The notes: generated by a model not told the origin, from the sequence alone. 15,054 bases of DNA from a virus (IMGVR_UViG_2657244961_000003:1-15054), one strand, 5' to 3'; shown: positions 10,309 to 11,246, counted from the first letter of the stretch. Numbers and translations are program-made.

Positions 10309-10387
10309 AAAACAATAAAACGCCCTTTAATGGGTGATGCTGCCAACTTACTGATTTAGTGTATGATGGTGTTTTTGAGGTGCTCCA

Positions 10388-10663
10388 GTGGCTTCTGTTT
10401 CTATCAGCTGTCCCTCCTGTTCAGCTACTGACGGGGTGGTGCGTAACGGCAAAAGCACCGCCGGACATCAGCGCTATCTCTGCTCTCACTGCCGTAAAAC
10501 ATGGCAACTGCAGTTCACTTACACCGCTTCTCAACCCGGTACGCACCAGAAAATCATTGATATGGCCATGAATGGCGTTGGATGCCGGGCAACCGCCCGC
10601 ATTATGGGCGTTGGCCTCAACACGATTTTCCGCCATTTAAAAAACTCAGGCCGCAGTCGGTAA
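10388..10663 (+). CDS. insA: IS1 InsA (transposition repressor / N-terminal part of the InsAB' transposase)
   Basis: ORF track protein [43 protein letters not shown]... is the canonical 91-aa InsA with its zinc-finger Cys motif. Confidence 0.9.
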
Positions 10664-11085
10664 CCTCGCGCATACAGCCGGGCAGTGACGTCATCGTCTG
10701 CGCGGAAATGGACGAACAGTGGGGATACGTCGGGGCTAAATCGCGCCAGCGCTGGCTGTTTTACGCGTATGACAGGCTCCGGAAGACGGTTGTTGCGCAC
10801 GTATTCGGTGAACGCACTATGGCGACGCTGGGGCGTCTTATGAGCCTGCAGTCACCCTTTGACGTGGTGATATGGATGACGGATGGCTGGCCGCTGTATG
10901 AATCCCGCCTGAAGGGAAAGCTGCACGTAATCAGCAAGCGATATACGCAGCGAATTGAGCGGCATAACCTGAATCTGAGGCAGCACCTGGCACGGCTGGG
11001 ACGGAAGTCGCTGTCGTTCTCAAAATCGGTGGAGCTGCATGACAAAGTCATCGGGCATTATCTGAACATAAAACACTATCAATAA
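10582..11085 (+). CDS. insB: IS1 InsB reading frame, expressed as the InsAB' transposase by -1 ribosomal frameshift at AAAAAAC (10639-10645)
   Basis: ORF track protein ...[28 protein letters not shown]...HYLNIKHYQ matches the canonical InsB; start coordinate is the ORF-track ATG, not a true independent initiation site. Confidence 0.85.
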
Positions 11086-11246
11086 GTTGGAGTCATTACC
11101 CAGGCATGTGTACGATATGCCCAACCCTGTTTTTCAGGGGAGGCGCAACGTTATGCGGGGGTTATGAACTCCTGGATGCGTAGCCTCCAGACAGAAAAAA
11201 CCCTCGCCACAACGTTGCATGGAGGCAACCAGCGAGGGCATTCCTT

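Follow-up and report, generated by a model that had tools for sequence, protein, structure and literature searches.

An IS1 element in place of the sim and immI loci of a P1-like phage-plasmid

Introduction

The closest described relatives of the DNA analysed here are phages P1 and P7 (Punavirus) and the IncY P1-like plasmids of Enterobacteriaceae. In the P1 reference sequence, the left part has the order S-R-16-bplA-pmgA-sit-pmgB-tub-pmgC, late promoter LPsit, simC-simB-simA, Oc4, c4, icd, and ant1/ant2, and the order past ant1/ant2 is PkilA/OrepL, kilA, repL, rlfA, rlfB, and pmgF (P1 gene facts are taken throughout from the RefSeq annotation, NC_005856, and from PMC10695390, PMC8546580, and PMC6906374). 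Ant1 and Ant2 antagonise the C1 repressor, and the C4 RNA represses Ant1 and Ant2 production (PMC8546580). ImmI is credited with the heteroimmunity of P1 and P7, and sim is credited with superimmunity (PMC6906374). CRISPRi and older literature indicate that simA/B/C, c4, icd, and ant1/2 are non-essential for plaque formation by P1, and assign an essential role to pmgC, tub, pmgB, sit, and pmgA (PMC10695390).

Two kinds of rearrangement described for P1-like elements are relevant. First, ImmI lies in a variable hot spot, RD-3, and both IS-mediated changes and loss of ImmI are known in natural P1-like plasmids, exemplified by pJIE250-3 and pSvP1; in pJIE250-3, the loss of ImmI goes with the loss of repL and most of the module (Venturini et al. 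2019, PMC6906374). Second, IS1 can serve on P1 as portable homology. In particular, Tn9 sits at the resident IS1 in the laboratory-selected phage P1 c1-100 Tn9 (P1Cm, IS1-cat-IS1), as the product of two recombinations of that IS1 with R-plasmid IS1s (Iida 1983, as cited in PMC10999674). More generally, a missing target duplication is a known signature of recombination between two IS copies or of IS-mediated adjacent deletion (PMC11708052).

Here we analyse a stretch of 15,054 bp (hereafter, the window) that contains an IS1 between a P1-like tail operon and the P1-like kilA-repL region. The window is the complete contig JRRG01000051.1 (reverse complement) of draft assembly GCA_000826805.1, and its positions are counted from its first nucleotide.

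Results

Gene content and order of the window

The genes to the left of IS1 read leftwards and the genes to the right of IS1 read rightwards. Specifically, PHROG matches identify the leftward genes as R (1432–1866), 16, BplA, PmgA, Sit (a transglycosylase/tape-measure protein of 1130 aa), PmgB, Tub (the tail tube protein), and PmgC (9559–10125), and PHROG and Pfam matches identify the rightward genes past IS1 as those for a KilA/Ant-type protein, RepL, an RlfA-like protein, and an RlfB-like protein. The features that frame IS1 are the following:

Positions 1432–10125, minus strand: leftward late tail/baseplate operon pmgC-tub-pmgB-sit-pmgA-bplA-16-R.
Positions 9559–10125, minus strand: pmgC, first gene of the tail operon and intact left boundary gene (phrog_1851, PmgC-like, E 4.9e-102; length and order as in P1 NC_005856).
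Positions 10157–10175, minus strand: late promoter LPsit, an exact 19-nt match to the annotated P1 LPsit, 157 bp left of IS1.
Positions 11101–11551, plus strand: ant-kilA spacer of 451 bp, present only in a subset of P1-like plasmids and not in P1 or P7.
Positions 11624–11640, plus strand: C1 operator OrepL (Op53), overlapping promoter PkilA, an exact 17-nt match to the P1 operator.
Positions 11710–12510, plus strand: kilA, right boundary gene, with PHROG and Pfam matches.
Positions 12540–13385: repL, past kilA.
Position 13389: Orlf, an exact match to P1.
Positions 13554–14258: rlfA, past repL.
Positions 14243–14722: rlfB, past rlfA.

Gene lengths in the window and in P1 are equal or within a few residues of each other (Sit, 1130 vs 1140 aa; rlfB ORF, 159 vs 154). 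At the nucleotide level, kilA-repL is 98.8–99.2% identical to P1, P7, and other Punavirus genomes (BLAST, phage records), the flanks of IS1 are 97–99% identical to P1/P7 and IncY P1-like plasmids, and the best match of the window among phage, plasmid, and complete E. coli collections is 99.3%. Because the PHROG matches, the gene order, and the gene lengths agree with the P1 map, the window is, as judged from its sequence, a stretch of a P1-like phage-plasmid and not a lambdoid-style prophage; the late tail operon and the lytic replicon are both syntenic with P1, and LPsit, OrepL, and Orlf match exactly.

The window differs from P1 and P7 in three respects: the sim and immI loci (simCBA, Oc4, c4, icd, and ant1/2) are absent, the IS1 occupies a site different from that of the resident IS1 of P1, and the window has a 451-bp ant-kilA spacer, which neither P1 nor P7 has. 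The spacer matches E. coli plasmid NZ_CP122494.1 (L001), relative L003, and E. albertii plasmid pEA22_2 (L007), is interrupted by an insertion in plasmid pZ1323CEC0010-3 (NZ_CP148447.1, L002), and was sought and not found in phage vB_EcoM-673R5 (L004) and in P1-like plasmids L005 and L006. It contains a terminator-like hairpin at 11479–11504. An ORF of 175 aa at 11164–11691 was considered as a truncated ant and rejected: it has no PHROG or Pfam match, and its counterpart in L001 and L007 is the unannotated ant-kilA spacer. A search of NCBIfam with the small hydrophobic ORF returned no match.

A complete IS1 without target-site duplication

Elements of the IS1 family are about 768 bp long, have imperfect inverted repeats at their ends, each of about 23 bp (GGTGATGCTGCC... 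/ GGTAATGACTCC...), and carry insA and insB', which are joined via a −1 frameshift at an A6C motif and encode InsA and DDE_Tnp_IS1 domains. The segment at 10333–11100 has the size, the inverted repeats, the frameshift, and the domains of the family. The element and its junctions comprise:

Positions 10333–11100, plus strand: complete IS1 of 768 bp, insA to insB reading rightwards, 98–99.7% identical to the IS1 copies of relatives.
Positions 10333–10355 and 11078–11100: terminal inverted repeats, GGTGATGCTGCCAACTTACTGAT and the reverse complement of GGTAATGACTCCAACTTATTGAT, respectively; canonical ends, read directly.
Positions 10388–10663, plus strand: insA, 91 aa, GTG start (Pfam PF03811 and PF12759; Zn_ribbon_InsA, HTH_Tnp_IS1).
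Positions 10561–11085, plus strand: open insB' frame, −1 relative to insA (Pfam PF03400, DDE_Tnp_IS1, E 2.3e-77).
Positions 10317–10332, no strand: left junction flank, AAAACGCCCTTTAATG, the left arm and loop of a hairpin, ending in the 9 bp cctttaatg.
Positions 11101–11109, no strand: right junction 9-mer, caggcatgt, which in uninterrupted relatives is located 30 bp past the stop codon of ant.

The A6C slippery site, TTAAAAAAC, is at 10637, and the reconstructed −1 fusion, InsAB', is 232 aa long with no internal stop. Identity with the resident IS1 of P1 was considered and ruled out: the P1 copy sits between isaA and isaB, at 21.5–24.2 kb (PMC6906374). A preliminary description of the window had placed an IS1 with intact ends at 10324–11109; the element is indeed complete and its ends intact, and the wider span includes the 9-bp flanks.

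A target-site duplication of 9 bp (8–14 bp) marks a simple IS1 insertion event, not the element itself, and IS1 scars without a duplication are textbook material. In the window, the 9-mers that flank IS1, cctttaatg (10324–10332) and caggcatgt (11101–11109), are unrelated, as the preliminary description had noticed. Realignment of the IS1 ends, with the boundaries shifted by up to ±4 bp, yields no direct repeat of 6–14 bp with at most one mismatch around the window's IS1, and so none of the 8–9 bp that would have spoken for simple insertion. In two other P1-like plasmids (L005 and L006), used as positive controls, the IS1 copies within ant, which are independent insertions, are flanked by a perfect 9-bp duplication, TTCAACATT. 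Since the duplication is recovered in these controls, its absence around the window's IS1 is meaningful.

The flanks of IS1 are colinear with uninterrupted relatives and the interval between them is missing

In P1 and in uninterrupted relatives, the interval between pmgC and kilA comprises simC/B/A, the C4 antisense RNA, icd, and ant1/2, and contains no head genes. On the left (to 10332), IS1 is flanked by sequence that runs colinear with phage vB_EcoM-673R5 as far as L004:7203, beyond which the phage has a DUF4760-type ORF, simC, simB, and ant1. On the right (from 11101), colinearity begins at L001:6001 in plasmid NZ_CP122494.1 and at L007:7983 in pEA22_2, which are the positions of the right 9-mer in these plasmids (ant ends at L001:5970 and L007:7952). 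At the left junction, the hairpin AAAACGCCC-TTTAATG-GGCGTTTT is whole in uninterrupted relatives, and the IS1 junction falls in its loop; past the junction point, vB_EcoM-673R5 continues from ...TTTAATG into GGCGTTTTGTT.

The preliminary description had proposed a comparison with relatives that lack the IS1, and plasmid pEA22_2 provides it. In particular, pEA22_2 has each of the two 9-mers once and at the matching site (CCTTTAATG at 4955 and CAGGCATGT at 7983), with 3019 bp between them (4963 to 7983), and this interval contains simC- and simB-like genes, icd, and ant. The left flank of the window is only 87.5% identical to pEA22_2; vB_EcoM-673R5 and NZ_CP122494.1 each support one flank, at 97–98% identity, and the "empty site" is thus a composite of two plasmid lineages, no single relative with intact immI being near-identical at both flanks. 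With colinear flanks, about 3.0 kb between them in uninterrupted P1-like plasmids, and no duplication, the earlier view that the IS1 did not arrive by simple insertion holds.

Three further observations define what is lost and what is kept. First, Rfam models C4 (RF01695) and c4-a1b1 (RF03163) have matches within the interval in vB_EcoM-673R5 and pEA22_2, and neither has a match in the 15,054-bp window. Second, where P1 has sim and immI between pmgC and kilA, the window has IS1; immC and immT map outside the window. Third, the neighbouring elements LPsit, OrepL, and Orlf are untouched by the rearrangement. Because the lost block is non-essential in P1 and the pmgC side is essential, the deletion takes exactly the dispensable part.

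The junctions are shared by other P1-like replicons, some of which carry cargo between two IS1 copies

The left junction is identical in L002, L003, L008, L009, L011, L017, L022, L023, and L024, and the right junction is identical in L002, L003, L008, and L012. Plasmid pZ1323CEC0010-3 (NZ_CP148447.1, L002; closed, 93,030 bp, from chicken) has a solo IS1 with both junctions as in the window, and a further IS, of 1096 bp, at the position of window 11291–11296. Both outer junctions are also present in plasmids p1 of strain E2 (NZ_CP104510.1) and pEC17CM13_2 (NZ_CP190335.1), where two direct IS1 copies between the junctions enclose cargo: in p1 of strain E2, 2362 bp comprising a phytase-like esterase gene and an IS110 fragment; and in pEC17CM13_2, cargo trimmed to 1550 bp beside the right IS1, with the IS110 part removed. 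In plasmid pLR-64-1_1 (NZ_AP027589.1), the left junction is present together with the 2362-bp cargo, and the right IS1 abuts a different region of the P1 backbone. No target duplication was found around the IS1 copies of NZ_CP148447.1, NZ_CP104510.1, NZ_CP190335.1, or NZ_AP027589.1. The relatives found are largely from E. coli of chickens and other animals.

The cargo is 99.9% identical to a chromosomal locus with the order tRNA-Phe, integrase, IS1, esterase, and full-length IS110. Complete E. coli genomes with this locus, at a coverage of at least 80%, number 212, and among them is that of the host of the solo-IS1 plasmid, with the locus on its chromosome. The chromosome and the cargo plasmids have the IS1–esterase junction in common. 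At this identity, the cargo can be traced to the chromosomal tRNA-Phe island, whose native IS1 has the same cargo junction.

Over the left arm (8000–10332), most junction carriers are separated from each other by 0–13 differences in 2.3 kb, and non-carriers are separated from them by 50–77; one carrier, L003, is more divergent, with 27–38 differences. Because the left arms of the carriers, L003 excepted, are near-identical, a single origin of the junctions is suggested, and the shared junctions are consistent with one ancestral event followed by spread and by further IS1-anchored change. Seven other draft contigs have an identical Sit and are identical to the window over 8000–10332; the break is within IS1 in four of these contigs and at the junction in the other three (for L020 and L021, as judged from gene coordinates). 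Exact junction scans returned 0 matches in genome contigs (both junctions) and in metagenome contigs (left junction), and one contig per junction in IMG/VR. The right-junction IMG/VR contig, of 78 kb, has 0 differences from the window over 11101–13399.

Mechanism of the rearrangement

The flanks are hybrid, the DNA between them has been cleanly lost, and a series of variants has the same IS1 ends as anchors. These features place the locus in the class of IS-mediated deletion or recombination, and we consider it very probable that IS1 has replaced the approximately 3.0-kb sim and immI module of a P1-like phage-plasmid through an IS1-driven rearrangement. One IS1 end would have stayed at, or arrived at, each of the two sites, and the DNA between the sites would have been lost, leaving the left end of IS1 against the loop of the terminator, immediately upstream of the promoter region of the tail operon, and the right end 30 bp past ant. 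Two routes could have led there: adjacent deletion, through intramolecular replicative transposition, or recombination by RecA between two IS1 copies in direct orientation. Known scars of IS-mediated adjacent deletion and of recombination between IS copies likewise combine an intact IS, no duplication, colinear flanks, and variants on the same ends (PMC11708052); the present scar is of the same kind, and only its location and the absent precursor differ.

A precursor with IS1 and a 9-bp duplication at either site and with intact immI would have junctions ...CATAAATTACAGGCATGT abutting GGTGATGCTGCC and GGAGTCATTACC abutting CCTTTAATGGGCGTTTTG. A search for such a precursor among 72,556 plasmids (PLSDB) and 5,426 complete E. 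coli genomes found none, and its best matches were empty sites only. Because no precursor was found, adjacent deletion and recombination between two IS1 copies are indistinguishable. The preliminary description had offered just these two routes; the class of event it named agrees with the colinear flanks and with the IS1-anchored variants of relatives.

Order of events

The solo IS1 and the arrangement IS1-esterase-IS110 fragment-IS1 (hereafter, the composite) would interconvert through homologous recombination between IS1 copies. To order the two arrangements, nine IS1 copies were compared by their SNPs, which are suggestive and sparse. The window's IS1 is closest to the left copy of pEC17CM13_2 (two differences); its base at position 518 is private, and its pattern of variants is mixed. 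In NZ_CP104510.1, the two copies do not differ from each other, and both have three diagnostic SNPs (393, 396, and 444) in common with the chromosomal island IS1. These variants are compatible with repeated exchange among copies, but the positions are too few to demonstrate a crossover, and the window's copy is possibly a consensus made in assembly.

The solo arrangement may have come first, which we regard as quite possible, if short of probable. In this order, IS1 would have inserted with a 9-bp duplication at one site, and adjacent deletion to the other site would have given the solo IS1 with hybrid flanks; composites would have formed later, by recombination between the solo IS1 and the IS1 of the chromosomal island, followed by IS1-mediated excision into IS110. 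Several observations agree: the composites and the chromosome have the identical left junction of IS1 and esterase; on the inner right, where the IS110 interior meets the left end of IS1, the junction is precise and has no duplication, as expected when intramolecular transposition excises a "prime" plasmid; the host of pZ1323CEC0010-3 has the chromosomal esterase locus; and IS1 docking has a precedent in P1 (PMC10999674). However, the precursor was not found in the collections searched, the order takes four events, the same number as the reverse order, and the direction is not polarised.

The composite may instead have come first, which we regard as equally possible. Specifically, the IS1 of the island would have fused chromosome and plasmid, IS1 events would have trimmed sim and immI and excised a plasmid with IS1-esterase-IS110 fragment-IS1, and the solo IS1 would be a later RecA deletion between the two direct copies. 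Deletion between 768-bp direct repeats is frequent, and the composite is found in three closed plasmids, with the outer junction or junctions unchanged. The IS1 variants also lend some support: the identical copies of NZ_CP104510.1 carry the island SNPs, and the solo IS1s of the window and pZ1323CEC0010-3 are different variants, and each would fit a crossover at a different point in a pair of dissimilar copies like that of pEC17CM13_2. On the other hand, this argument involves a handful of SNP positions and an IS1 that is possibly an assembly consensus, the window and pZ1323CEC0010-3 differ at 543 from both copies of pEC17CM13_2, and the cointegrate intermediate has not been seen.

It is improbable that the solo arrangement of the window is an artefact, in which the two junctions belong to different IS1 copies (of a composite or of two replicons) and were joined through the repeat by the draft assembler. 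The continuity of the window through a multicopy IS does rest on a draft assembly, in which a collapsed IS1-cargo-IS1 or a chimeric join is possible; the window is a whole 15-kb contig, the seven related draft contigs break inside or at this IS1, and the window's IS1 has the private base at 518 and mixed variants. However, closed NZ_CP148447.1 has the same solo arrangement. Moreover, both junctions are real, because they are seen independently in many assemblies, and they and the loss of sim and immI between pmgC and kilA would stay real even if the window were misjoined.

Head and packaging genes

In a lambdoid-style prophage, head genes adjoin tail genes. The preliminary description had expected genes for the head, the portal, and the terminase on the right of 10125; in P1, the genes past pmgC are simC-simB-simA-c4-icd-ant1/2-kilA-repL. 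Because the window is one whole short contig, the lack of head genes in it is uninformative, and the relatives that share its junctions carry such genes. In particular, NZ_CP148447.1 is a full-length 93-kb P1-like plasmid with repA, parA, parB, c1, lpa, a tail sheath gene, the portal gene (PHROG 1497), both terminase subunits (PHROG 1711 and PHROG 2), and a homologue where gene 23 lies in P1. The 78-kb IMG/VR contig with the right junction has the gene-23 homologue and a portal protein, and the 52.5-kb IMG/VR contig with the left junction has a portal protein. Head or packaging genes thus accompany this operon in the nearest relatives, and the "missing head genes" of the window most probably reflect the scattered gene order of P1 and the end of a draft contig.

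On the reading of the preliminary description, the IS1 event took away the head, portal, and terminase genes and left a cryptic prophage or a tailocin-like remnant. This reading starts from the absence of any head or packaging gene in 15 kb but is very improbable: sim and immI natively lie beside pmgC, with head genes elsewhere on the 94-kb P1 genome; the lost interval is just about 3 kb, with known content; and a closed plasmid with the same scar has portal, terminases, sheath, and gene-23 homologue.

Discussion

Comparison with described rearrangements indicates what is already known and what is new. The variability of ImmI (RD-3), IS-mediated changes, and a plasmid without ImmI, pJIE250-3, are known (PMC6906374), as are IS1 scars without duplication. 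New here are an IS1 site unlike that of the resident IS1 of P1, a deletion confined to sim and immI, and a captured chromosomal segment in sister plasmids. In contrast to pJIE250-3, the window has kilA-repL intact, and in contrast to both pJIE250-3 and pSvP1 (PMC6906374), the agent in the window is IS1, with defined junctions common to a small clade.

The parallel with P1 c1-100 Tn9 lies in the use of IS1 on P1 as portable homology, in the interconversion of solo and cargo-bearing forms, and in the absence of a target duplication (PMC10999674). The differences are that the present IS1 is at another site, that the cargo is a chromosomal esterase with an IS110 fragment and not an R-plasmid resistance gene, and that the present arrangement is natural whereas P1Cm was selected in the laboratory (PMC10999674).

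For the analysis of P1-like elements, a correction follows: in such an element, an IS and early genes beyond the tail operon are no evidence of prophage decay, because P1 scatters its late operons.

For the biology of the element, the gene content predicts which functions are kept and which are lost. The tail operon should still be expressed from LPsit, and kilA-repL should stay under C1 control because OrepL is kept. Lysogeny should be set up and kept via immC and immT despite the loss of sim and immI. Ant-dependent induction or derepression should be lost, and there should be no C4- or Sim-based protection against, or exclusion of, incoming P1/P7-type phages. Since the only genes lost are non-essential for P1 growth, the element could remain a viable phage-plasmid.

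It is conceivable, if rather unlikely, that the IS1 with hybrid flanks acts as a standing recombination dock, at which the immI-less lineage repeatedly integrates into chromosomal IS1s and excises with adjacent DNA ("P1-prime"). If this were true, the capture of the tRNA-Phe-island esterase would be natural "P1-prime" formation, and the superinfection-immunity and induction phenotype would be altered through the loss of c4, ant, and sim.

In a small P1-like clade, a recurrent, defined IS1 allele removes the whole sim and immI module and spares its essential neighbours. The island segment at the same IS1 position in sister plasmids shows IS1-mediated traffic between chromosome and phage-plasmid. 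The locus is a further case from nature of variability at the ImmI hot spot, and it extends the classical account of IS1 and Tn9 in P1.

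Contig boundaries and the Sit variant

The reverse complement of JRRG01000051.1, a complete contig of 15,054 bp from draft assembly GCA_000826805.1, corresponds to window positions 1–15054. The left end of the window lies within the S tail-fibre gene, with the invertible C-segment adjoining. Towards the right end, positions 11012–14995 are identical, except for one mismatch, to IMG/VR contig 2667527770_000005, but the match ends sharply at ~14993, and the window's final ~60 bp (14993–15054) differ. This abrupt loss of homology suggests that the segment downstream of rlfB at the contig end is a further repeat or rearrangement boundary.

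The Sit protein of the window (4567–7959) comprises 1130 aa, versus 1140 aa in P1, and at least 20 draft-genome contigs encode exactly this 1130-aa variant. In all eight of the contigs listed, one of which is the window's own contig, either IS1 is located at the same site upstream of pmgC or the contig ends there.

The ant-kilA spacer and the closed solo-IS1 plasmid

The 451-bp ant-kilA spacer is present in only some P1-like plasmids. In the window, it contains the following elements:

11247–11309: ORF of 20 aa, overlapping the start of the hydrophobic ORF
11294/11309–11425: very hydrophobic ORF of 38–43 aa, with sequence ...VVTNIIVPVIIGASSSVLASVIASLLHIA
11479–11504: terminator-like hairpin, after the hydrophobic ORF

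By analogy, the arrangement of the ORF pair and hairpin (11247–11504) resembles that of a small membrane toxin/leader pair; the region has no match in NCBIfam or Rfam.

The closed solo-IS1 plasmid NZ_CP148447.1 carries a further IS-like element, of 1096 bp (L002 4989–6084), flanked by a 6-bp duplication, AGTGTG, at the site equivalent to window positions 11291–11296, the exact start of the small hydrophobic ORF. The element codes for a 352-aa integrase-core transposase, which is labelled incomplete in RefSeq. In the same plasmid, RefSeq flags pmgB as containing an internal stop and several tail-fibre genes as fragments (L013 15483–16364 and 23507–26137); this particular plasmid may have a morphogenetic defect with causes unrelated to IS1. 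The pmgB of the window is intact (293 aa).

IS1-associated rearrangements in related plasmids

Three P1-like plasmids carry a module comprising IS1, an esterase gene (phytase-like family), an IS110 fragment, and IS1, located in the compared records as follows:

L003: 5595–9492
L008: 2–3087
L009: 8266–12163
L016: 3002–6575

The module's cargo is a piece of a chromosomal tRNA-Phe island that 212 complete E. coli genomes contain. The pEC17CM13_2 version of the cargo is shorter by 812 bp, the loss adjoining the right IS1. In pLR-64-1_1 (L009, NZ_AP027589.1), an IS3-family element occupies 6977–8124, within the pmgC-IS1 spacer, and the right IS1 adjoins, from 12164, a distant P1 region containing ref and a "lysogeny establishment" gene with a frameshift, a junction indicating a large IS1-mediated deletion or inversion.

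Two other P1-like plasmids, from Viet Nam (human) and Canada (pig), carry IS1 inside ant:

L005 and L006, 7478–8245: IS1 in opposite orientation, with 9-bp duplication TTCAACATT

These insertions are independent, making immI a repeated IS1 target.
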